This document shows positions 1,308 to 12,100 of a stretch of 64,000 nucleotides of DNA, one piece after another. The notes under the pieces are model-generated. The model ran no database searches. It was given only the letters and a program-made list of their open reading frames with translations, and was not told where the DNA came from. The position numbers and the translations under genes were made by a program. Each line of letters opens with the position of its first letter. Position 1 is the stretch's first letter. Origin of the DNA: an uncultured Planctomycetia bacterium (lineage in GTDB: Bacteria > Omnitrophota > Gorgyraeia > B26-G9); NCBI GenBank assembly GCA_964437495.1, contig CAYTGV010000001.1, positions 28,552 to 92,551 on the forward strand, given 5' to 3'.

Positions 1308-3836
1308 TTACTCCTCCTTTTTATTTTCTATGAAACAGCCTGGGTATTCCGAAGCTTTAGAACAAACACCAGCCATTATACCTACAACTACAATACTTGC
1401 TATCAACGTTATACTCCATGAGATGTTTGTATAGCCACGTAGTATATATATAAGAGCCACTGATACAGCAACAGCAATAACCTGACAATATTGACAATTG
1501 CAAAGCATCTTTACCCCTTCTTTTTTTAAGATAACCTCAGGCAGCATAATCATGAGTGCCGGCAGAATAAATAATGTGGCAATACTTGAAACAAACATGA
1601 TCGTAAACATAAAAAAACCTACTGTTCGGTAAGGAATAAGCGGTGCCAGCAAAAGCGGCAGAAATCCAATAGCAATAACAAAAGCATTCCTGCTAATTGC
1701 CCGCGCAGGACCTTTAAACATCTTCTGCACAGTCTCTTGCAAGTTATTATTCTTTCCGTAAAGCACCCTTGCCCGTTCAATAAAATGGATAGCAAAATCT
1801 ATAGACAGCCCTAAGGTCAACGCGGAAAGAACAACAACCGGCATATCATAATCCTTGCCTATAAATCCCAGTAAACTGTAAATAAAAACTATAGTCAAAG
1901 TCAAGGGGATCATTGAGATCAGTCCCCGCAAAGGAGAACGGAACAAGAAAGTCATCATAAAAAACACGATAATAAAACTGCCGATAAAATTCATAAGCAT
2001 ACCAAAAACCATCTTGTTCTGCCAAACCACATTTATAAAAGTCAGCCCGGCCCAGTTATAACTAAGCTCAAAAGGCGGCTTATTTGCCTTTATAAAATCA
2101 TCTACCTGTTTAATAACCCTGCCCATATCCTTATTATCGCCGCTTTTAAGCTGAACCCAGATATTAATCTTTCCATAATCCGGAGTAGCCATATGCCAAA
2201 GATCATCCGGTTTATGAGAATTTTCATAAGATATAAGACATTGCGCAATAGCACGCTTTGTCTTAGGCATAACATTATTGGTTTTGTCTCCTCCCAGCAG
2301 CTCATAATAGACCTTCTTTACAATATCTGTCAGCGCTGTTGTTTTCCCTACATCGCCTTTCGCAAGAAGACTAGCCTGTAATTTTTCAACATACTTAAGC
2401 ATTTTGGGTTCAAGAAAAACCTCAGCCTTTTTATCTTTAGCCTCCAGAACAAGATAAGCCATATACGTACCAGCAAAATGTTTATTTAATATCCTGTCCG
2501 CTATCCTGATTGGATGATTTTTTTTGAACCAGCGCACCGGATTATCGTTAACATTAATTTTAGAAATTCCGTAGAATGAGATTATTGCCAATAAAATACT
2601 GCTTATAATTATGCCTTTATACCTTTTCAGAACAAATCTATGTATATTTTCAAGAACCTTATTCATTAAACCCTGCTGCGTGACACCATCTTTATTTTCA
2701 ATCTTGCAATTTTTAAATGATCTTTCTCTCATCAGCGCGATATAAGCCGGAATGAATGTTAAAGTCAGAAACCAGGCAATCATCACCCCAATAGAAACAA
2801 ATACTCCAAATGTCTGCACCGGAGGAATAGGTGAAAAAGACAAGGAAAAAAATCCCACTGCTGTCGTCAATGAGGTATAAAGCATGGGCGTAAACAGTTC
2901 ATTCATAACAGCGAAAATAGTGCTGCCCTTTTCTCCCGTAACCCTGTATTTATCCGAAAACTCGCTTAAAATATGGACAGAATTAAGTACGGCTATGGGC
3001 ATTAAGAAAATAGGGATCATCGAACTCATGATATGCACAGGAAACCCCAGGCCTATCAATAGTCCCATTGTCATAACAACTGTTGAAATAGCAAGAAGCA
3101 TGGGAGAGATTATTAAGGTAATACTCCGAAAGAAAAGAAACATAAGCAGAAAAATTATCAAACCAGCTAGGGGAGCGGACATGGCCATCTGTTTAAACAT
3201 TTCAACCCCAAATGTATCCTCAGCCACCGGTAAACCCGTAATATAATACTTTTCTTCCCCCTTGAACTGTTTTACAATATTATAGATATTCTGCGAAACC
3301 CTGTAGCTTATATTTTTTCGCTCTATAGGCACATAAACACATAAGGCCTTTCCATCTTCTGACACCATCGTTCCGTTGAACATAGGATTATCCAGAGCCT
3401 CATCCCTAAGAAGAAAGGCTTCTTTTTGTGTGCTCAATGGCCCTTTCATTAGCCATTCAAAGACTACCGAACCGACCATTCCCTGGCGAATATTATCCTT
3501 TGTCGACGGAGCAATTATTTCCCGCGCAATCACACCATCAATACTCTTTATGGCTTCGGTAAGTTCATATATTTTATTTAATGTCTCAACATTAAAGACC
3601 CCGTTATCGTCATGCTCATTAACTATCCCAACAACAATAAAATCATAAATAGCAAATTCTTTTTTTACTTTGTGATGAAAAACCCTGGCAAATTCAGTTT
3701 CAGAAAGCATGTTTTCCGGGTCAGTATCGACTTTTATCTTCGAAAACTGGAACAAAGCAATACCAATTAGAAATATAGTAATCGCCATGATAGTCTTCGG
3801 ACGGTTAAAAGAAAACTTAATTATATTCTTGAACAT
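1308..3836 (-). CDS. MMPL/RND-superfamily exporter (COG1033-type)
   Basis: 842 aa with two bundles of about 6 TM helices separated by large soluble loops, typical of MMPL/RND predicted exporters. Start ATG at 3836 is preceded by a G9 run in the ribosome-binding site. Confidence 0.8.
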   Translation of the reverse strand: MFKNIIKFSFNRPKTIMAITIFLIGIALFQFSKIKVDTDPENMLSETEFARVFHHKVKKEFAIYDFIVVGIVNEHDDNGVFNVETLNKIYELTEAIKSIDGVIAREIIAPSTKDNIRQGMVGSVVFEWLMKGPLSTQKEAFLLRDEALDNPMFNGTMVSEDGKALCVYVPIERKNISYRVSQNIYNIVKQFKGEEKYYITGLPVAEDTFGVEMFKQMAMSAPLAGLIIFLLMFLFFRSITLIISPMLLAISTVVMTMGLLIGLGFPVHIMSSMIPIFLMPIAVLNSVHILSEFSDKYRVTGEKGSTIFAVMNELFTPMLYTSLTTAVGFFSLSFSPIPPVQTFGVFVSIGVMIAWFLTLTFIPAYIALMRERSFKNCKIENKDGVTQQGLMNKVLENIHRFVLKRYKGIIISSILLAIISFYGISKINVNDNPVRWFKKNHPIRIADRILNKHFAGTYMAYLVLEAKDKKAEVFLEPKMLKYVEKLQASLLAKGDVGKTTALTDIVKKVYYELLGGDKTNNVMPKTKRAIAQCLISYENSHKPDDLWHMATPDYGKINIWVQLKSGDNKDMGRVIKQVDDFIKANKPPFELSYNWAGLTFINVVWQNKMVFGMLMNFIGSFIIVFFMMTFLFRSPLRGLISMIPLTLTIVFIYSLLGFIGKDYDMPVVVLSALTLGLSIDFAIHFIERARVLYGKNNNLQETVQKMFKGPARAISRNAFVIAIGFLPLLLAPLIPYRTVGFFMFTIMFVSSIATLFILPALMIMLPEVILKKEGVKMLCNCQYCQVIAVAVSVALIYILRGYTNISWSITLIASIVVVGIMAGVCSKASEYPGCFIENKKEE

Positions 3837-3841
3837 TCCTA

Positions 3842-3850
3842 CCCCCCCCC
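3842..3850 (-). repeat. Homopolymeric C9 (G9 on the coding strand) tract inside the ribosome-binding site of the MMPL exporter
   Basis: Minus strand reads AAGGGGGGGGGTAGGA-ATG. This is the only G/C homopolymer of 8 or more in a roughly 35% GC window. Confidence 0.7.
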
Positions 3851-4012
3851 TTAAAGGATTAGATGAATTTAAAAAAATGCACTGCTTTTAAACATACAAA
3901 TATATATTTATATTAATGATTTGTTTTTAAAGTAAACATACCGCTTTAACATTAAAATATTGTTTATTATTATATTATTGCGCTTCTTATTGTCAATACA
4001 ATATTATCTTGA

Positions 4013-4246
4013 TCATACCGCGATTAAACAGCTATCAATCTTCGGCTGATCAAATCCAATAATAACAGTACCATCTATATCAATTACAGACACCCCCATC
4101 TGACCAGAAAGTTTAATCATTTCCTCTGCTTTAGTTTTATCGATGGAAACATCAATTGATTAATATGCTATGCCTTTTGAAGAAAAATACTTTTTAGCCA
4201 TTGTACAGTAAAGACAAGTTGGCATTGAATAAATTTTCACCTCCAT
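4013..4246 (-). pseudogene. Glutaredoxin-like (NrdH/Grx thioredoxin-fold) gene with an in-frame TAA at 4160..4162
   Basis: A single frame reads MEVKIYSMPTCLYCTMAKKYFSSKGIAY-*-SIDVSIDKTKAEEMIKLSGQMGVSVIDIDGTVIIGFDQPKIDSCLIAV. It has the CxxC redox motif and Grx-family hallmarks (a C-terminal ...VIDIDG...GFD... block), and GGAG lies about 8 nt upstream of the ATG. Homologues usually have E or K where the stop falls. Confidence 0.55.
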
Positions 4247-4281
4247 ATATCACTCCTCTTCTAAAAGACATAAAACGAATA

Positions 4282-4764
4282 TTAATTTGTTATTTTTTTT
4301 CTAAACTCTGTCAATACTATGACATGCCTTTTTTCTTCTCTTATAATACTATCCAGCAACTCTTTCTTATCATCTAACACATATTCCTTTAATGCTGTGT
4401 AGACAAGTATTGATTCTTTTTCTATCTGTAATCCAAAATCCAAAGCCTCCAGAGTACTCGCAAACAATTCCTCTGTTTTTCTCTTTATTAACTCAGGGGT
4501 GAATATATAAGTCACAGCTATTGCTTCTAAATAAGCATCATAATCTCCCACACCAAATTCTTTAATGAAATAATCTCCAGAGCTCTCAAGCATCTTTTTA
4601 AATCTGCTTTGATGGCCTATTTCCTGCTCTTTTAAAAACTTCCAAACAGACTTTATTTTTTTGTCCTCTGCCTTTTCTTCAAGCTTAGCGTAAAGCTACT
4701 CGCCATTTTCCTCTACCTTCAAAGCAATATCAAGAATTTCCTGCGGACTCCAATTATTATTCAT
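4282..4764 (-). pseudogene. Ferritin-like / rubrerythrin-family diiron protein with an in-frame TAG at 4696..4698
   Basis: A single frame reads MNNNWSPQEILDIALKVEENGE-*-LYAKLEEKAEDKKIKSVWKFLKEQEIGHQSRFKKMLESSGDYF...EKRHVIVLTEF. It has two E..H diiron-type motifs. The track ORF 4282..4593 is only the part after the stop; same frame, no frameshift. Confidence 0.55.
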
Positions 4765-4774
4765 CTTTGCTCCT

Positions 4775-5953
4775 TTATCCGGATATTAACTGTTTTATTT
4801 TACTGACCACACCCTTTAGGCCCTCAAGATCACTCTCATCCGGAACAAACTGCATATAAATCCCATCTTCTATAATCTGCATACCTGCCTCTTTTAATCC
4901 CTCTTCAAGCTCTTTAAATCCTATCTTTGCCCAGCCATATGAACCAAAGCTAAGCGCAAACCTGTTTTTAGGCTTTAATCCCTTTAAGTAAGTCAGGAAT
5001 CCACCCATGCTCGGCAATATCTGATTATTAAGGATAGCACTTCCCAAAAGGACAACCTTTGATCTCATAACTTCTGTTATCGCATCTGAGAAATCCGATG
5101 TTTTTAAACTAAGCTTTACAACAGGAATACCTTCCCTGTCAAGCAAATCACCTAATTCAAAAGCAATCTTTTCCGTAGAATGCCACATAGTATCATAAAT
5201 AATGACCGCTCTGTTATCAGACTCGTAGTTTGCCCATTTTTTGTAAAGTTGTAATATTTTTTTTATATTTTCTTGTTTTTTCCAAATCAGTCCGTGAGAC
5301 GGACATATCATTTTAATATCCAGGGATTTTAAAGCCTCAAGCACCTTAAGAACCTGCGCTCCGTAAGGCATCACAATATTAGCATAATACTTTGCTGCTG
5401 CCTCAAAAACTATATCCGCTCCAACCTCATGGACATAACGCTCAGAGCTTGCATGATGCTGACCGAAAGCATCGTTAGGGAACAAGATCGAATCATCCGG
5501 CGAATAGGTTGCCATTGAATCAGGCCAATGCACCATGGGCATCAGAAAAAACTTCAATATCCTTCTGCCTATTTTTAGCTCATCGCCAGTATTGACAACT
5601 TTAAACTTCCAATCTTTCTTAAAATGCCTCTTTAGCCCCTTTTCCCCAGCCAGAGAACACACGACCTCTGCCTTAGGACAAAGCTCAAGCATCTTTTCAA
5701 TGCATCCAGAATGGTCCATTTCAGTATGATTTGAGATTATATACTCTATCTTCGAGGGATCAATAACCGCTTTGATCCTAGAGGCCATCTCATCAAAACC
5801 ATAATGCTTTACAGTATCTATCAATGTCGGCTTTTCATCAACAATAAGATAGGCATTATAAGTGGATCCAGTAGGAGTGGAATACCCGTGAAAATTACGC
5901 AGTTCCCAATCAATATCCCCAACCCAATAGATATCTTTTTTTATCTCTGTCAT
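4775..5953 (-). CDS. Flavodiiron protein (rubredoxin:oxygen oxidoreductase / FprA family)
   Basis: 392 aa with an N-terminal metallo-beta-lactamase-like diiron domain (HWPDSMATYSPDDSILFPNDAFGQHHAS) and a C-terminal flavodoxin-like domain. Confidence 0.9.
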   Translation of the reverse strand: MTEIKKDIYWVGDIDWELRNFHGYSTPTGSTYNAYLIVDEKPTLIDTVKHYGFDEMASRIKAVIDPSKIEYIISNHTEMDHSGCIEKMLELCPKAEVVCSLAGEKGLKRHFKKDWKFKVVNTGDELKIGRRILKFFLMPMVHWPDSMATYSPDDSILFPNDAFGQHHASSERYVHEVGADIVFEAAAKYYANIVMPYGAQVLKVLEALKSLDIKMICPSHGLIWKKQENIKKILQLYKKWANYESDNRAVIIYDTMWHSTEKIAFELGDLLDREGIPVVKLSLKTSDFSDAITEVMRSKVVLLGSAILNNQILPSMGGFLTYLKGLKPKNRFALSFGSYGWAKIGFKELEEGLKEAGMQIIEDGIYMQFVPDESDLEGLKGVVSKIKQLISG

Positions 5954-5981
5954 TTGAATTCCTCTTAAAAGTTTCTTTGGT

Positions 5982-6122
5982 TTATTTTACTTCCTTAAAC
6001 TGATCTTTGCCTACCCCGCAATCAGGACAAACCCAGTCGTCCGCAAGCGCCTCAAAAGCCACATTATTATTCTCTGCCGGGTCATAAATATATCCGCAAA
6101 CTATACATTCAAATTTTTTCAT
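5982..6122 (-). CDS. rub: Rubredoxin
   Basis: [19 protein letters not shown]...[19 protein letters not shown] has two CxxCG knuckles. Internal start of track ORF 5982..6206, with GGAGG upstream. Confidence 0.9.
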
Positions 6123-6136
6123 ATTTCCTCCTTTAA

Positions 6137-6457
6137 TTATTTTATCAAACCGCTTAACATGCTCACCAGCTTTTCCTTTGGGACCACCCCCACTGACTCT
6201 CCGCAAACCTGTCCCTTATTAAAAATCAAAACCGTGGGAATACTCATCACTCCATATCGAGTTGCTACATCAGGAGCATCATCAACATTCAATTTACAGA
6301 TCTTTACTTTTCCATTATATTCATTAGCCATTTCATCTATAAGCGGTGTTAATATACGACAGGGACTGCACCATTGGGCCCAAAAATCTATAAGCACCGG
6401 AATGTCTGATTTAATAACTTCTTGTTCAAAATTTTCTGTACTTAGCGCTAAAGCCAT
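6137..6457 (-). CDS. trxA: Thioredoxin (variant WCSPC active site)
   Basis: 106 aa with thioredoxin-fold signature ...[13 protein letters not shown]... and ...[14 protein letters not shown]... Confidence 0.85.
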
Positions 6458-6619
6458 TCTTTTGCTTCCTCCTTATTTTTAAGATTTTAGAACAAATTAA
6501 TATCCTATTTTGCCAGCTCATATATTTTATCTTCTATTAATTCAGCATCTTTTTCTTCTTCAATCAGCAAATTTAAAAACATTTCACGCGCAACAAGCTG
6601 TTCCTAATCCAGGCGCTGA

Positions 6620-6650
6620 TAAAGATCATGCGCCTGCCTATCCTTATGAG
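6620..6650 (-). terminator. Putative stem-loop terminator downstream of the SOR gene
   Basis: Inverted repeat caggcgc...gcgcctg with a T-run nearby on the minus strand, lying between the sor stop (6662) and the trx start (6457). Confidence 0.3.
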
Positions 6651-6661
6651 AATAGCCTTAT

Positions 6662-7057
6662 TTATACAACTGTTATTTTTTTTGTGCTTTCCCACAAACC
6701 GTGTATATTACAATAACTGATTGCAATCAAGCTACCTGATTTTTCTGTTTTTATAGTCAAATTTACTGATGGCTGTGTATATATACCGCTTGTATTAGCT
6801 CCCTGCGCCGATGCCCCATGTGAAGCTAGCTCTGTACGCGCGATTTGATATGGAAATTTCTCTCCATCTGCCAGAAAATATACTGAAATCCAAGCGATAT
6901 GATGCTCTGAAGTATTGGGATGCGCTATTTCTTTACCAACCGTTATATTAAAATCCAAAGCATCTCCCTTTTTGATATTATCTGCTGATTCTATTGCCGG
7001 CACATGCTTTTCTGTTTTCCAATCTGCACTTTGAACCAGATCTTTTGCAATGGTCAT
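6662..7057 (-). CDS. sor: Superoxide reductase, 1Fe neelaredoxin/desulfoferrodoxin class
   Basis: 131 aa with EKHVPAIE, HPNTSEHHIAWISVYF and CNIHGLWES motifs (the His4-Cys iron ligand pattern of SORs). Confidence 0.85.
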   Translation of the reverse strand: MTIAKDLVQSADWKTEKHVPAIESADNIKKGDALDFNITVGKEIAHPNTSEHHIAWISVYFLADGEKFPYQIARTELASHGASAQGANTSGIYTQPSVNLTIKTEKSGSLIAISYCNIHGLWESTKKITVV

Positions 7058-7073
7058 TTAATACCTCCTTTTG

Positions 7074-7577
7074 TTAGAACTTTTTGAACATTTCCTTTTT
7101 AACGCCGCAAATAGGGCAAAAATCCGGATATTCGTTTTCTGCTGTAAATCCGCAAACAGGACACACATAGAAATCTACTGAATCGATATCCTTATTCGCA
7201 TCTACAGCAACTTTTGTTTTCTTATACATAGTCTCATGGATTTTTTCAGCCTCAAGCGCATAATGAGCTGACCTTGCTGCATTTTTTTCCCCCTGCTTTT
7301 CAGCCTCAGCCAAATAGGCAGGATACATTTCCTCTACCTCAAAATGTTCTCCGCTTATAGCCACCGGCAGATTATCCACACTTGTTCCAATGCCGCCAAA
7401 AACTTTTAGATGATTGCCAGCGTGAACTCGCTCTGCATAGGCTATGGCCCGGAAAAGCCTGGCCACATTCAGTTTACCTTCTTTTTCTGCTATATCAGCG
7501 AATATAAGATATTTCATATGCGCCTGCGATTCTCCAGAAAAAGCATTTTGCAAATTTTGTTTCGTCATTTCATGCAT
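7074..7577 (-). CDS. rbr: Rubrerythrin
   Basis: 167 aa with an N-terminal ferritin-like diiron domain (E..H pairs) and a C-terminal rubredoxin-like CPVCG...CPICG. Confidence 0.9.
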   Translation of the reverse strand: MHEMTKQNLQNAFSGESQAHMKYLIFADIAEKEGKLNVARLFRAIAYAERVHAGNHLKVFGGIGTSVDNLPVAISGEHFEVEEMYPAYLAEAEKQGEKNAARSAHYALEAEKIHETMYKKTKVAVDANKDIDSVDFYVCPVCGFTAENEYPDFCPICGVKKEMFKKF

Positions 7578-7642
7578 AATTTTCTCCCTTCAATGAGCAT
7601 ATCACTTAAGGAACAAAGTAACTTAAGCGATATATGCGAATT

Positions 7643-7697
7643 AACCCCGCCATGGCGGGGTTGATCCCCCCGCCTGTTTTGCCCTTGCAAAACAGGC
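7643..7697 (-). terminator. Two tandem GC-rich hairpins between the regulator-reductase operon and rbr
   Basis: aaccccgccatggcggggtt is a perfect 20-nt palindrome at 7643..7662. gcctgttttgc-cctt-gcaaaacaggc is an 11-bp stem at 7672..7697. Both lie just 3' of the stop of gene 7716..8426. Confidence 0.5.
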
Positions 7698-7715
7698 AGA
7701 TATTATCACTACATT

Positions 7716-8426
7716 CTAATAACCTATGAAATTTTCCGCCATTATCCAATTTTTATCACAGCCTGATTCAACACATAAGTCTTTCATGGCCTTGACCATA
7801 ACCGGTGGACCGTAAATAAAAAATCGCCTTGCCGTTAAATCCTGCAACCGGCCGCTTAACAATTCGCCAGATATATGCCCATGCACGCATATATCATCTT
7901 TAGGCTCGCAATCAGTAACCGTATATACAACCTGCATATTTTCATTAAGCCTGTTCCAGGAATCAAGTTCCCGCCTAAAGGCAATCTCCTCCTTATTTCG
8001 ATTCGAATAAAAAAGAATTATGTCTATACCCAGTTTTTTTTCCATAATATATTCCAGAATAGAAATAACCGGGGTAATGCCAATGCCTCCGATAAGAAAT
8101 CCTATCTTTTTATAATCTTCTTTAAATATACAGTTTCCCATCGGCCCCTGCATTAAAAGACTATCTCCTAGCTTTAATCCTTTCAGTCTTGCCGAAAAAG
8201 AACTCTCGCTCAAGCGCTTTGTAACCTCAACATAGTCCTTCTCAGGTGAGACTGAAAAAGAAAGATATTTATTAAGATCTTTATTCTGCAGAGCTTTATC
8301 ATCAAAAACAACTTTCACAAACTGCCCGGGCGCAAAAGTAATCTTTTCACTGGTTTTAAAACAAAAACTCTCCACGCTCGGAGTCCTTTTAATCCTTTGA
8401 ATTAGTTCTGCGGAAAATGTATTCAA
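7716..8426 (-). CDS. FNR-like FAD/NAD(P)-binding oxidoreductase (ferredoxin-NADP reductase family), candidate NAD(P)H:rubredoxin-side reductase
   Basis: 236 aa with an FAD-binding barrel (QFVKVVF...YLSFSVSP) and an NAD-binding Rossmann domain (GFLIGGIGITPV). Overlaps the upstream regulator gene by 4 bp. Confidence 0.7.
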   Translation of the reverse strand: MNTFSAELIQRIKRTPSVESFCFKTSEKITFAPGQFVKVVFDDKALQNKDLNKYLSFSVSPEKDYVEVTKRLSESSFSARLKGLKLGDSLLMQGPMGNCIFKEDYKKIGFLIGGIGITPVISILEYIMEKKLGIDIILFYSNRNKEEIAFRRELDSWNRLNENMQVVYTVTDCEPKDDICVHGHISGELLSGRLQDLTARRFFIYGPPVMVKAMKDLCVESGCDKNWIMAENFIGY

Positions 8427-8866
8427 CTCTCAGCTCTTCCTTTATTTTCACTATTAACAGCCCCAACCCGGCACTCACGGCAAATACCGTAAAAATATCC
8501 CTGAAGTTCCTGGATCACATGCCCGTCTACCTCGGATCTCTGCAGAGTCAGACAGAGAGGTATATCAACATCAAAAACTTTTTTGCATTTTTTACAATAG
8601 AAATGATGGTGAGCATCCATTCTGCTATCATAGCATGATTTATCAAAATTAATTCTTATCTCTCTCGCCAAATTTTTCTTACCGTAAAGCTCTAAAATAG
8701 TATAAATTGTAGCCAAAGAAATAGCCGGAAATTTATCTTTCATTTTCCTGTAAATCTCATCAACAGTCAAGTGCTTATTTGTATTGCACAATAGATCATA
8801 AACTCCCAGCCTTTGAGGAGTAATACGAATGCCTTTTTCTTTAAGTATTGCGATTTTATCTTTCAT
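8423..8866 (-). CDS. Fur-family transcriptional regulator (PerR-like peroxide sensor)
   Basis: 147 aa with an N-terminal winged helix and C-terminal HHHFYCKKC...CRECR metal sites. First gene of the oxidative-stress island, with a Fur/Per box upstream. Confidence 0.8.
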   Translation of the reverse strand: MKDKIAILKEKGIRITPQRLGVYDLLCNTNKHLTVDEIYRKMKDKFPAISLATIYTILELYGKKNLAREIRINFDKSCYDSRMDAHHHFYCKKCKKVFDVDIPLCLTLQRSEVDGHVIQELQGYFYGICRECRVGAVNSENKGRAES

Positions 8867-8915
8867 AGAAATATAATGTAATATATTGCTTAGGGCTTGT
8901 CAATAATTATTTTTA

Positions 8916-8934
8916 TATAATAATCATTATTATA
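8916..8934. promoter_or_regulatory. Fur/PerR-box-like 9-1-9 inverted repeat upstream of the Fur-family gene
   Basis: TATAATAAT-C-ATTATTATA sits about 32-50 nt upstream of ATG 8866. It matches the Fur box core (GATAATGATAATCATTATC) and the Per box (TTATAATNATTATAA). Confidence 0.6.
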
Positions 8935-9043
8935 AGAAGAACTTCCATGTAGCTTGCCCCCTAGACATAACGATCTGAAAAAAAAGAAGTTATGTATTTA
9001 AGATTTTATTTCAATTTAAATAAATATTTATTTTGCTTGTTCA

Positions 9044-9072
9044 TTGATATTCTCTTTAACGTATGGTATACT
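9044..9072 (+). promoter_or_regulatory. Sigma70-like promoter for the 9144 gene
   Basis: TTGATA-17 nt-TATACT, followed by a leader of about 70 nt. Confidence 0.45.
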
Positions 9073-9143
9073 TTATTACTCATTTTTCATATCCTTTTCT
9101 CAGGGGATTAAAGGGCAAAATTAAACATTAAAAACGGGGACAT

Positions 9144-12100
9144 ATGAAATACAAAAAAAACACATACAAAAAACTGCTTCTAATTATACTAGTCAACTCT
9201 TTGATTTTTTCTCATTATTTTATTGGGCAAGTTTTGGCTGAGCAGGCCTCCGACACTTATATAAAAAAATACACTAGGATAGATAGTAATGACCTTCTTT
9301 CCCCCCAAAGCAATATTGAAAAGTTAAGGGCAGGCAGCTTTTTCGAAAAAAGCCTCACTTCTGAGTTTACCGGTTCAAGACTGTCAAATAAAAAGCCAAG
9401 AAAATTAGCTGATTTAAAACTGGCCAATAAAAACCTTTTTCCAATCCCGTTCCCATTCCCTTCCGCACAATTTGATCGAGGACAATCAACTCCGGAATGG
9501 CTTGAGTCATATATTATGTCAAGAGTACTTCTAGAGCTAAGTTTCAAGCACAACAACTTGATACCTTTAAAAGCAGCCTTAGAAATTGCCCCGGAAGTTT
9601 TCGAAAATTACGGGCTAAAAGCAAATATAAAAAAAATAATCAAGCTTATTAATGGATTACAAAAAAGAGCTTTAATCTCAAATGCTGACGGTCTTGATTT
9701 CAGCTATAACCACCAGCAGATTATTCAGATTAATGTTCCTTTAAGAACTTTGGCCGTCTGGTCTGATGCCTTTAATTTTATCCGCAGTGATATTAAAAAC
9801 GCTCTTGCTTCTAGCCACTATGATTTCCTTACCATAATTGAGGAATATGCCCTCACTAGTGAATTGTGGCCTGCTCATCCAATTGAATCCCGGTATCCGG
9901 TACTAAGAGCCATTGCCAGTTTAACAGCAGAGGAACAAAAGAAACTCATAGCTATATTACTAAATAATGAACGGCTAAGAACCTATCCGCTCATAGATTC
10001 CACAATACTCATGCTGGACTTCGAGGAAGGAAAAAAAGAGTGGCTGCAAAAATATGCTCCTCAATTAGTAAATCGAAACCTTTATCTTATTGCCGCGGAA
10101 ATATCATTACTTGCCGGCGGCTTAGGAAGAGTGATGCAGTATCACGGAACAAATATGCATAAACTCGGAGCCAATGTGCTTTATGTAGAACCGTATTATC
10201 CCCTAACCAGAGATAAAACTGGATCCGTACAGCCTTTGGACTACTCAGGCTTGGCTATACCCGTTAAAGATTTGAAAAAAATCGACTACGATTTTACCAC
10301 AATAGTTCAAAATGGAAATATTTCTTTTGAAGTCTTTGTCGGGAAAAACACACTCGGCATAACCGTTTATCTGATCAGAGATAAAAAATCCGAATATGTT
10401 AATATCCTGTATGAATACGGCACTCAGGAATCTCCTGCCTCAAATTATGAATTTACCGAGTTTTTCACCAAAGCAACTCTGGAACTTATTAAATATTTGG
10501 AAGTAAAAGAACGAAAAAAATTAGGCAACAGATATAAACCTCCGCTTGTAGATGCAAACGACGGACAGGCTCTGCCCTTAAATGCTTTTAGAAGAATTTT
10601 TTATTTAGATAAGGAAAAAATAATCACAGAAGGCACAAACAAAAGAGATATAGATTTAGCACATGAGGTGTTAACTCAGGCAATTTTTAACGGTACAACT
10701 CATACTTACCGAAACCGCGGTATCATCAATGACTTTAATTACGGCCGTCATTTTTTAAGTAATGCAGGGATCCCAGAAGAATATCTATGGCTGTTTCTTC
10801 GCAAAGAAATCGATGGAACCCTTCTTTGGGATATGACTAGCGGCGGGCTTAGAAGTTCTGATACAAGCAAAGCTGTTTCCGCAATTCATGCCCATGAAAT
10901 GAATGCCCTTGATCCGATGATAAAACTTATCGGCATTACCAACGGCGATGACCGCGTGTATTCTTCCGCTTATTTCAGAGAGGCACTAAAAATTCTGGGA
11001 GTATCCGACTTTGAACATCCCACTGCACAGCAGGTTGCAAAAGCAAAAGCTATCTGCAAAAAAAATATCGGGCTTGACCCTAATCAAATGGTCATCTCCT
11101 ATTCCGGCAGGCTGGTGCAGGAAAAGGCAGGCCGAAACCGTGCTTTGACAGATGAAAACATCGAAGCTCTTGTAAAAGAAGGAATACAGGTACTTATCTA
11201 CGGCAATGTGCAGCCTTATGAAGAAAGCATTGCTATCAAAGAATCTCTTGAAAGACTACAGGAACGCTTATCAAACTCCGGATATAAAGGCAGGCTTATT
11301 TTTAAGCCAAAATTCAATATTGATGAACAAAGACAGCTTTTAGCTGCTACAGATATTCAGATCCAGGATTCTGACCGTTATACCGGAGCTGCCGAATATA
11401 CTGAAGCAGATGTTACCGCTAACGGCGGAATTCAAATGGGCGCTCCATTCTGGGAAGGAATAATTCAAAAACAAGGTGCTGTGATAAATTCAAAAACAAT
11501 GACCGGCAATACCCTTGTACCGGCCGATACAAACAGTAGCTCTTTTTTAAACTCTTTTAACTGGGCACATAAGAAATTCCTAGCTCCAAACAATGAACTT
11601 AGCGTTTATCAGGCCTCTTCTATCGAATTAAGCAGAGTTCTGGAGGCCTCTTTGACAGCTGCCGAATACTTACGCTTCTGGAATAATGCCTTCTGGGAGC
11701 AAAAAAATAAAATGCCAGCTCCGAAACCACGCGTTGCCGGAGAAGTCAACATCCTTGATTTATCCCTTATTTGCCATAGCAACTCAAAATCAGCCTCGAT
11801 TTTACGGCAAGTAAACAACTTCAGCTTGGATTATTCTCCCCAAAAAGGTGACGAATTGGAATTTACCGTTACTATAGACCGCCAGGCTTTTGATTCTCTG
11901 CATTATGGGCAAAAACATCTTGTCTCCTTTGACTTGGTTAGCGCTCAGCTTGTAAATGACTATGGACTCAGAGTACCTTTAAGCATCAAAAAAGTAGCCG
12001 AAATAACTGTAACCTTTAATGCTTTTTTACCTAAAAACCTGCCTCTGCCTTTTAATGGAATTATCGAAATAACTTCCGGATTATGGAAAAGCGCACGCAG

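Follow-up and report, generated by a model that had tools for sequence, protein, structure and literature searches.

We examined a group of genes on the minus strand of an Omnitrophota contig (CAYTGV010000001.1, assembly GCA_964437495.1), within a stretch of 64,000 nucleotides that is referred to below as the window and to which all coordinates apply. At its head stands a gene for a Fur-family regulator, preceded by a perfect palindrome and followed by genes for enzymes of oxygen, superoxide and peroxide detoxification. A first-pass annotation of the sequence had described these genes as an anaerobe-type oxidative-stress cluster, and our results support this description. The positions of the genes and of the palindrome, and the order of the genes on the minus strand, were borne out by Pfam matches and by the sequence itself. 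Positions 3600..9600 are identical to contigs in four public assemblies, and homologues of the window proteins are nearly all labelled Candidatus Omnitrophota. Genes were identified by Pfam and NCBIfam profile matches; loci of relatives are denoted by labels such as L005 or L094. The control elements and the intact genes are the following.

8916..8934, minus strand: operator site 1 (predicted), perfect palindrome TATAATAAT-g-ATTATTATA, core AATAAT-n-ATTATT at 8919..8931
8899..8911, minus strand: candidate operator site 2, AATAAT-T-ATTgac, read from the sequence, putative binding
8875..8903, minus strand: sigma-70-type promoter of perR from a promoter scan, TTGACA (8903..8898), 17 nt, TACATT (8880..8875)
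8423..8866, minus strand: perR-like Fur-family regulator gene (perR), 147 aa, PF01475, E 6.4e-23
7716..8426, minus strand: gene for a stand-alone flavoprotein of the ferredoxin-NADP reductase (FNR) fold (fnr), 236 aa, PF00970 and PF00175, TTG start
7074..7577, minus strand: rubrerythrin (rbr), 167 aa, PF02915 (N-terminal diiron) and PF21349 (C-terminal rubredoxin-like)
6662..7057, minus strand: 1Fe superoxide reductase (SOR) of neelaredoxin type (sor), 131 aa, PF01880, TIGR00332 above cutoff
6137..6457, minus strand: thioredoxin (trx), 106 aa, Pfam and NCBIfam
5982..6122, minus strand: rubredoxin (rd), 46 aa, PF00301
4775..5953, minus strand: class-A flavodiiron protein (fdp), 392 aa, PF19583, PF00753 and PF00258

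No paralogues of these genes were found elsewhere in the 64-kb window. Taking together the operator, the promoter, the regulator and the linkage of the genes, we consider the locus to be, with rather better than even probability, an Omnitrophota oxidative-stress operon that is controlled by its own PerR-type regulator.

Probable operator, promoter and regulator

The palindrome TATAATAATCATTATTATA at 8916..8934 lies 50 bp upstream of the start codon of the Fur-family gene (8866) and is the sole perfect 9-1-9 palindrome in the window. Taken alone, this is no more than chance would give in such AT-rich DNA: a perfect 9-1-9 palindrome of any sequence turned up in 39 of 100 dinucleotide-preserving shuffles of the window (mean 0.54). 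The significance of the palindrome comes from its conservation in other genomes, and only this comparative analysis rules out a chance origin. The core AATAATNATTATT, with at most one mismatch, was found at 32 sites in 80 Omnitrophota loci (916 kb), about 15 of which are located 36-65 bp upstream of a Fur-family start codon, mostly at 48-56 bp. When 13 upstream regions were aligned, an invariant block stood out; after it come TTGACA and, 17 unconserved bases further on, TAnAnT, and then the start codon, with no conservation upstream of the block. Four further close relatives share the same arrangement of box and promoter.

Altogether, 24 distinct promoters conform to the consensus nnttaaacAATAATnATTATTAtnTAAAAATAATTaTTGACA with zero indels, fixed spacing and a free centre base, and a Fur-family gene lies downstream in each one whose sequence extends far enough. 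A metagenome search with a pattern made of the box, the A-tract and the -35 element gave nine hits, of which seven could be assessed; each of the seven precedes a Fur-family gene, at 40-67% identity. The outer three bases, which give the window's palindrome its 9-1-9 extent, are unconserved across promoters, and the functional unit, as judged from these alignments, is a 6-1-6 dyad.

The box agrees with the Bacillus subtilis-type PerR consensus TTATAATNATTATAA at 12/14 positions, with the Fur 7-1-7 consensus TGATAATNATTATCA at 12/14 and with the Escherichia coli Fur box at 14/18 (PerR and E. coli Fur consensus sequences from PMC545781). The earlier proposal that the palindrome is a Fur/Per box of the Fur-family gene is upheld by these matches and by the fixed distance seen in the 24 promoters. 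Very probably, judging from this conservation, the palindrome is the operator of the adjacent PerR-like regulator. It had also been noticed that no similar box precedes rbr or trx; this is confirmed, and no useful box was found elsewhere in the 64 kb. Three box-like sites in the window were discarded, namely 29326 (in a short spacer between co-directional genes, and not a dyad), 50215 (within coding sequence) and 23568 (a match with three mismatches that is merely an A/T run). The one box-like site away from perR that was examined in relatives, at position 4629 of L017, is coding sequence. A further perfect palindrome, the AT-only 8-0-8 AAATAAATATTTATTT at 9018..9033, occupies the spacer between perR and a divergent gene for a 1012-aa protein with a starch-synthase domain. 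It was not seen in the perR upstream regions of relatives and is therefore probably a chance product of AT-rich DNA.

The closest PDB match of the regulator is PerR of B. subtilis (2fe3, E 1.5e-22; 33% identity over aligned residues), and the other top PDB matches are mostly PerR entries or labelled Fur. The clostridial PerR equivalog NF052545 is its top NCBIfam match, at 115.3 bits and thus below the cutoff of 180. Residues H32, D80, H86, H88 and D99 align without gaps to His37, Asp85, His91, His93 and Asp104 of PerR, and C91, C94, C129 and C132 to its zinc-binding Cys96, 99, 136 and 139. In 14 Omnitrophota orthologues the four cysteines, the three histidines and the Asp104 equivalent are invariant, the Asp85 equivalent being D, E or N. 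According to the published list of PerR ligands, Fur proteins have Glu at position 104, and the residue at this position is thought to control access of peroxide (PMC4866751). In the loci examined, the regulator gene always stands at the head of genes for detoxification of peroxide, superoxide and oxygen. On account of the structure and family matches, the ligand residues and these constant downstream genes, we call the regulator PerR-like, a designation based on sequence, and predict that it senses peroxide.

The promoter of perR is conserved too: in a promoter alignment (A2), TTGAC and the T-A-x-A-x-T of the -10 element are invariant. The ATG of perR follows the -10 element by only 8 nt and lacks a Shine-Dalgarno sequence (8864..8880), a strong one being present in every other gene of the cluster. 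This short spacing between the -10 element and the start codon is common to the aligned promoters. The perR message is therefore probably leaderless, or nearly so. With respect to the predicted transcription start, site 1 spans about -66..-48 with its centre at about -57, and only the weaker site 2 overlaps the -35 element. The centre of site 2 lies 20 bp downstream of that of site 1; of its two halves, the left one matches the half-site perfectly and the right one runs into the -35 element. A conserved TAAAA A-tract separates the two sites, and the whole block is free of indels in the 24 promoters.

This geometry suggests how the promoter may be controlled. A leaderless perR message would start at the conserved sigma-70 promoter, and a dimer of the PerR-like protein would bind AATAAT-n-ATTATT, centred at about -57. 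A second dimer would probably occupy the half-degenerate site 2, two helical turns downstream and over the -35 element. The dimer on the strong site would help the second one to fill the weak site on the same face of the DNA, hiding the -35 element. In anoxia the regulator would shut its own promoter, and the repression would be lifted once peroxide had oxidised the His/Asp iron site.

Probable extent of the transcript and decay of distal genes

The genes perR and fnr share 4 nt, TTGA (8423..8426), in which the stop codon of the former and the TTG start of the latter overlap; the overlap recurs in five other loci, which suggests translational coupling. Remaining spacers in the cluster measure 10-35 nt, with the exception of two long ones, fnr-rbr and sor-trx. 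The first-pass annotation had placed hairpin terminators in both and had divided the cluster into three transcription units. This division is not supported: the fnr-rbr hairpin has no U-tract and is absent in distant relatives, and the supposed sor-trx terminator is pseudogene debris. A terminator scan of the coding strand found no site in either spacer. A sigma-70 scan of the coding strand near both gave a single weak site, 7730..7702, and none inside the sor-trx spacer. The first of the two spacers is nevertheless a feature in its own right.

7578..7715, minus strand: structured fnr-rbr spacer, dG -58.3 kcal/mol, z -6.4 versus shuffles, three hairpins

The three hairpins are located at about 7699..7670, at about 7662..7643 (a GC hairpin, AACCCCGCC/GGCGGGGTT) and at 7644..7590, the last one being long, imperfect and ending just short of the Shine-Dalgarno sequence of rbr. 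The tail is UUAAUUCGC, with no U-tract following the hairpins. A GC-rich hairpin after fnr is found in the close clade (L005, L007, L094, L096 and L099) and is absent in L006, L008, L013, L016 and L017, where the fnr-rbr spacer has 40-80 nt; in the distant relatives that lack it, the genes are contiguous with perR. Folding of the homologous segments in L099, L005 and L007 predicts the long hairpin there too. Across these lineages its outer stems are conserved, its middle stem shows a compensatory change of U-A to C-G, and its inner stem, likewise with compensatory changes, has another sequence in each lineage. An Rfam search of positions 3500..9700 yielded no family at E<=1. The hairpin is not a dispersed repeat, as it is unique in the window and has its sole counterparts in the corresponding spacer of L005 and L007. 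A sigma-54 promoter within the conserved TTCGCA was likewise rejected, since the GG-N10-GC spacing fits L005 and L007 and not the window or L099. The spacer could act as a site of RNase III or other processing, as a stabiliser of the downstream message or as an attenuator. Most likely a single continuous transcript would start at the perR promoter and cover fnr, rbr, sor, trx, rd and fdp; the structured spacer would modulate or process it and make no clean end.

The other long spacer and the distal end of the cluster contain genes in decay.

6508..6657, minus strand: remnant of a rubrerythrin-like gene, a 58-aa gene in relatives, identified by comparison with them
4282..4764, minus strand: rubrerythrin-fold ferritin-like gene (Pfam), disrupted by an in-frame TAG
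4013..4246, minus strand: YruB-type glutaredoxin-like pseudogene (Pfam, NCBIfam), with an in-frame TAA

The sor-trx gap (204 nt) folds no better than shuffled sequences (z -0.76) and has no U-tract; its stem lies within the remnant of a coding sequence. This remnant is the 3' part of the 58-aa rubrerythrin-like gene; it lacks the 5' end and contains an in-frame TAG, and intact copies of the gene are present in L005, L008, L013 and L094. In L013 and L094 a ferritin gene stands before the 58-aa gene; this ferritin gene is deleted in the window. The intact order, with the pair of ferritin and 58-aa genes, is retained in L094. In L005 the ferritin gene is frameshifted and carries a TAG (L005 2375..3158), and in L096 a transposase gene follows sor (L096 4816..5829).

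At the distal end, the ferritin-like and glutaredoxin-like genes of the first-pass annotation are present where they had been placed, but both carry in-frame stops. The TAG of the ferritin-like gene (4698..4696), found in two assemblies, replaces a codon for His, Gln, Ser or Lys in relatives. The TAA of the glutaredoxin-like gene (4162..4160) stands in place of a Glu codon of the closest relatives, and this gene has also lost two prolines, CPYC having become CLYC and GVPV having become GVSV. Recoding of the stops, or an alternative genetic code, is not credible because the neighbouring genes terminate normally in TAA, TAG and TGA; the two lost prolines are essential ones, and related ferritin genes are frameshifted or deleted. 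From the deletions, stops, frameshift and transposase it follows that the clade is eroding its iron-storage and distal thiol genes.

Two side observations concern the same region. The active site of the thioredoxin (6358..6372) reads WCSPC in the window, WCGPC in six relatives and WCAPC in L008; the WCSPC form may be a tolerated variant or a sign of relaxed selection. A perfect sigma-70 promoter (12/12 positions, TTGACA-16-TATAAT; 3969..3996, minus strand) lies 17 bp past the stop codon of the glutaredoxin-like gene and is predicted to drive a gene for an MMPL/RND-type transporter (3836..1308). The transporter gene is syntenic with the cluster in L007, L008, L013 and L016. In the window no terminator lies between the two.

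The FNR-fold reductase

The product of fnr consists solely of a FAD-binding beta-barrel and an NAD(P)-binding Rossmann domain, with no fused Fe-S domain, and reaches no NCBIfam family cutoff. Its AlphaFold (AF2) model has a pLDDT of 93.2 and resembles cytochrome b5 reductase, NqrF, flavohaemoglobin, Fpr and Fre at TM scores of 0.80-0.86 and at most 23% identity; the 50 matches listed by Foldseek are all modules of the FNR superfamily. The motif GGIGITP and the C-terminal Tyr236 are invariant. By sequence and predicted structure, the protein is thus a member of the ferredoxin-NADP reductase superfamily. It differs clearly from the canonical NAD(P)H:rubredoxin oxidoreductase (NROR), a protein of about 400 aa with two Rossmann domains, in having 236 aa and no Pyr_redox domain. 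Known rubredoxin reductases belong to the NirB superfamily and possess two GxGxxG motifs (PMC6033852). As this is a different fold family, the FNR-like protein stands outside the NROR family.

Linkage was counted in 71 Omnitrophota loci with enough downstream sequence, on the same strand and within 4 kb. Genes for SOR, flavodiiron protein or rubredoxin follow fnr in 55 of the 71 (rubredoxin in 38, flavodiiron protein in 37, SOR in 32). The gene immediately after fnr encodes SOR in 13 loci, flavodiiron protein in another 13 and rubredoxin in four. Conserved neighbours of fnr include Rrf2 regulators, PNPOx-like and TrxR-like proteins, a Tpx fusion, hybrid-cluster protein and SufBD, and no NROR-type protein was found among them. 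The first-pass annotation had proposed fnr as the missing NAD(P)H:rubredoxin reductase of the cluster. Its role in electron supply is supported by the linkage and by the lack of an NROR-type neighbour, but to call such a reductase missing on the basis of 64 kb was an overstatement.

In the proposed pathway, the FNR-fold flavoprotein would take electrons from NAD(P)H and hand them singly to rubredoxin, and reduced rubredoxin would in turn serve superoxide reductase, flavodiiron protein and rubrerythrin. We regard it as quite possible, if somewhat short of an even chance, that the 236-aa protein serves in Omnitrophota as the physiological NAD(P)H:rubredoxin oxidoreductase, or else as a broader point of NAD(P)H entry for SOR, flavodiiron, rubrerythrin and hybrid-cluster enzymes.

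The wider distribution of fnr is worth recording. In most Omnitrophota (L010-L084) the fnr-like cluster is accompanied by an Rrf2-family regulator (35 loci) instead of perR. The fnr-like cluster also contains, besides the PNPOx-like, TrxR-like and hybrid-cluster proteins, a fusion of Tpx and pterin dehydratase, SufBD/SufC, a VIT1-ferritin fusion and 2Fe-SOR. It looks like a phylum-wide redox-defence supercluster in which the regulator has been swapped between lineages.

Alternative readings and known systems

Several observations weigh against our reading of the locus as an operon under its own PerR-type repressor, with fnr supplying rubredoxin. The regulator scores well below the NCBIfam cutoff for PerR, and the box fits Fur and PerR consensus sequences equally. 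Irr and Fur models reach 65 bits with the same protein, and ferritin and ferritin-like genes belong ancestrally to the cluster. All this could be expected if the regulator were an iron-sensing Fur, or some other Fur-family sensor, and the cluster responded to iron. We consider this very unlikely. The DNA of the box, matching both consensus sequences at 12/14, cannot separate a Fur box from a Per box, and it is the protein that points to PerR: its top structural and family matches are PerR, its Asp104 equivalent is invariant where Fur has Glu (PMC4866751), and its gene always heads detoxification genes. Moreover, a search of the window, feoAB among its genes, gave no further box.

The strong palindrome is also placed upstream of the -35 element, clear of the core promoter, so that simple steric repression needs the weaker site 2 or a block of the UP-like A-tract. 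One could suppose that the AT-rich block owes its conservation to a role as UP element or activator site, the regulator then activating its own promoter from about -57. Site 1, which does not overlap the core promoter, occupies a location typical of class-I activators and UP elements, and TAAAAA is similar to a proximal UP subsite. Such activation seems very improbable to us, since perfect dyad symmetry around a free centre base marks an operator bound by a dimer and not an UP element, and the block is found solely before the regulator's own gene. In addition, the half-sites are of the Fur/PerR-box type (PMC545781), and PerR proteins characterised so far are repressors (PMC8546684).

Another point is that transcription could end at the GC-rich hairpins that follow fnr in the close clade; rbr, sor, trx, rd and fdp, having no box of their own, would then fall outside PerR control. 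In this case perR-fnr would end at the GC hairpin, and the genes from rbr to fdp would have an internal promoter of their own and a long structured leader, making two or more units altogether. The three stable hairpins, the recurrence of the GC hairpin in five relatives with a U-rich tail in L094, the lack of a box upstream of rbr and a weak promoter-like site (TTCATA-17-GATAAT, 7730..7702) speak for such a division. We nevertheless judge it unlikely, though it deserves more weight than iron sensing or activation. The window spacer has no U-tract and no terminator called on the coding strand, the promoter-like site agrees at only 9/12 positions and has its -35 element inside conserved codons, distant relatives have short hairpin-free spacers, and the L094 spacer leaves scant room for a promoter.

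As for the reductase, the fnr cluster follows an Rrf2, hcp or SufBD gene in most Omnitrophota, for which reason the enzyme may serve several acceptors, and in several loci fnr is followed by SOR with no rubredoxin nearby. The FNR-like protein might reduce SOR, hybrid-cluster protein or flavodiiron protein directly, or be a flavin or ferric reductase, and not act on rubredoxin. In favour of this, fnr stands directly before SOR or flavodiiron genes far more often than before rubredoxin genes and comes after hcp in about ten loci; the protein is weakly similar to Hcr, the reductase of E. coli hybrid-cluster protein (PRK10684), and its size and fold are like those of Fre and LuxG. Direct reduction of a rubrerythrin-like protein by an FNR is also on record (PMC3317640). 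On the other hand, rubredoxin is the commonest downstream partner of fnr, and it is the usual requirement of flavodiiron proteins of class A (PMC6033852). If the protein reduced free flavin, contact with oxygen would be expected to yield peroxide, an odd outcome in a defence cluster. A role other than rubredoxin reduction is in our opinion less likely than not, although direct reduction of SOR or of hybrid-cluster protein is a serious alternative, and we retain the rubredoxin pathway as a tentative assignment.

Little is understood of the Omnitrophota, which are uncultured and for the most part anaerobic, and our literature search found no paper describing oxygen defence in this phylum. The locus adds to the known perR-headed defence operons, in a phylum where none has been described. 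Its particular features are an operator located mainly upstream of the -35 element, a leaderless regulator gene and an FNR-fold reductase in the place of NROR. One outcome of the analysis is a motif of operator and promoter, at the level of the phylum, with which regulons of a PerR-like regulator can be sought in complete genomes. Another is a candidate for the enzyme by which NAD(P)H would feed detoxification through rubredoxin in the place of a canonical NROR. Since systems built on this logic are well known in clostridia and sulfate reducers, the gain is incremental, with the exception of the reductase, should it prove a new enzyme class. If the proposed function is true, it would be a structurally new class of rubredoxin reductase that has replaced canonical NROR across a whole candidate phylum.

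Among known systems, the perR-rbr-rdl operon of Desulfovibrio vulgaris and the perR-rbr-roo operons of Geobacter, for which a palindrome upstream of perR was predicted (PMC545781), offer a close parallel. There, as in the window, perR heads the operon, rubrerythrin and rubredoxin-linked oxygen-defence genes follow, and a candidate palindromic operator upstream implies autoregulation. The boxes differ, that of the window being near the B. subtilis type and theirs not, and the window has in addition an FNR-fold second gene, a leaderless perR and a main site upstream of the -35 element. With PerR of B. subtilis itself and its Per box, the window shares the five regulatory ligands, the Cys4 zinc site and 12 of 14 box positions; protein identity is 33%, and the second base of the window's half-site is A, in contrast to T in the PerR box and G in the Fur box. 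In Clostridioides difficile the rbr1 operon is repressed by PerR, which binds it in electrophoretic mobility shift assays and autoregulates (PMC8546684). Both are oxidative-stress operons of anaerobes under an autoregulating PerR, predicted in the case of the window. In C. difficile PerR binds upstream of rbr1, whereas the cluster of the window begins with perR and includes the FNR-fold gene.

The proposed electron path corresponds to that of the NROR chains, represented by NROR of Clostridium acetobutylicum, rubredoxin reductase of Pseudomonas aeruginosa and NorW of E. coli (PMC6033852): from NAD(P)H to a FAD reductase, to rubredoxin and to the terminal enzymes. The reductases of those chains have about 400 aa and belong to the NirB superfamily, whereas that of the window has 236 aa and the FNR fold. 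Enzymes named FNR have been found to pass electrons to comparable acceptors in vitro, one reducing the rubredoxin domain of RBD1 (PMC6697814) and another the rubrerythrin-like peroxidase ferriperoxin (PMC3317640). In both cases NADPH electrons reach a rubredoxin domain or a rubrerythrin-like peroxidase, a likeness that goes by enzyme name. Those FNRs are housekeeping enzymes acting as in vitro or general partners, whereas the fnr gene of the window appears dedicated, being kept in a defence cluster across the phylum.

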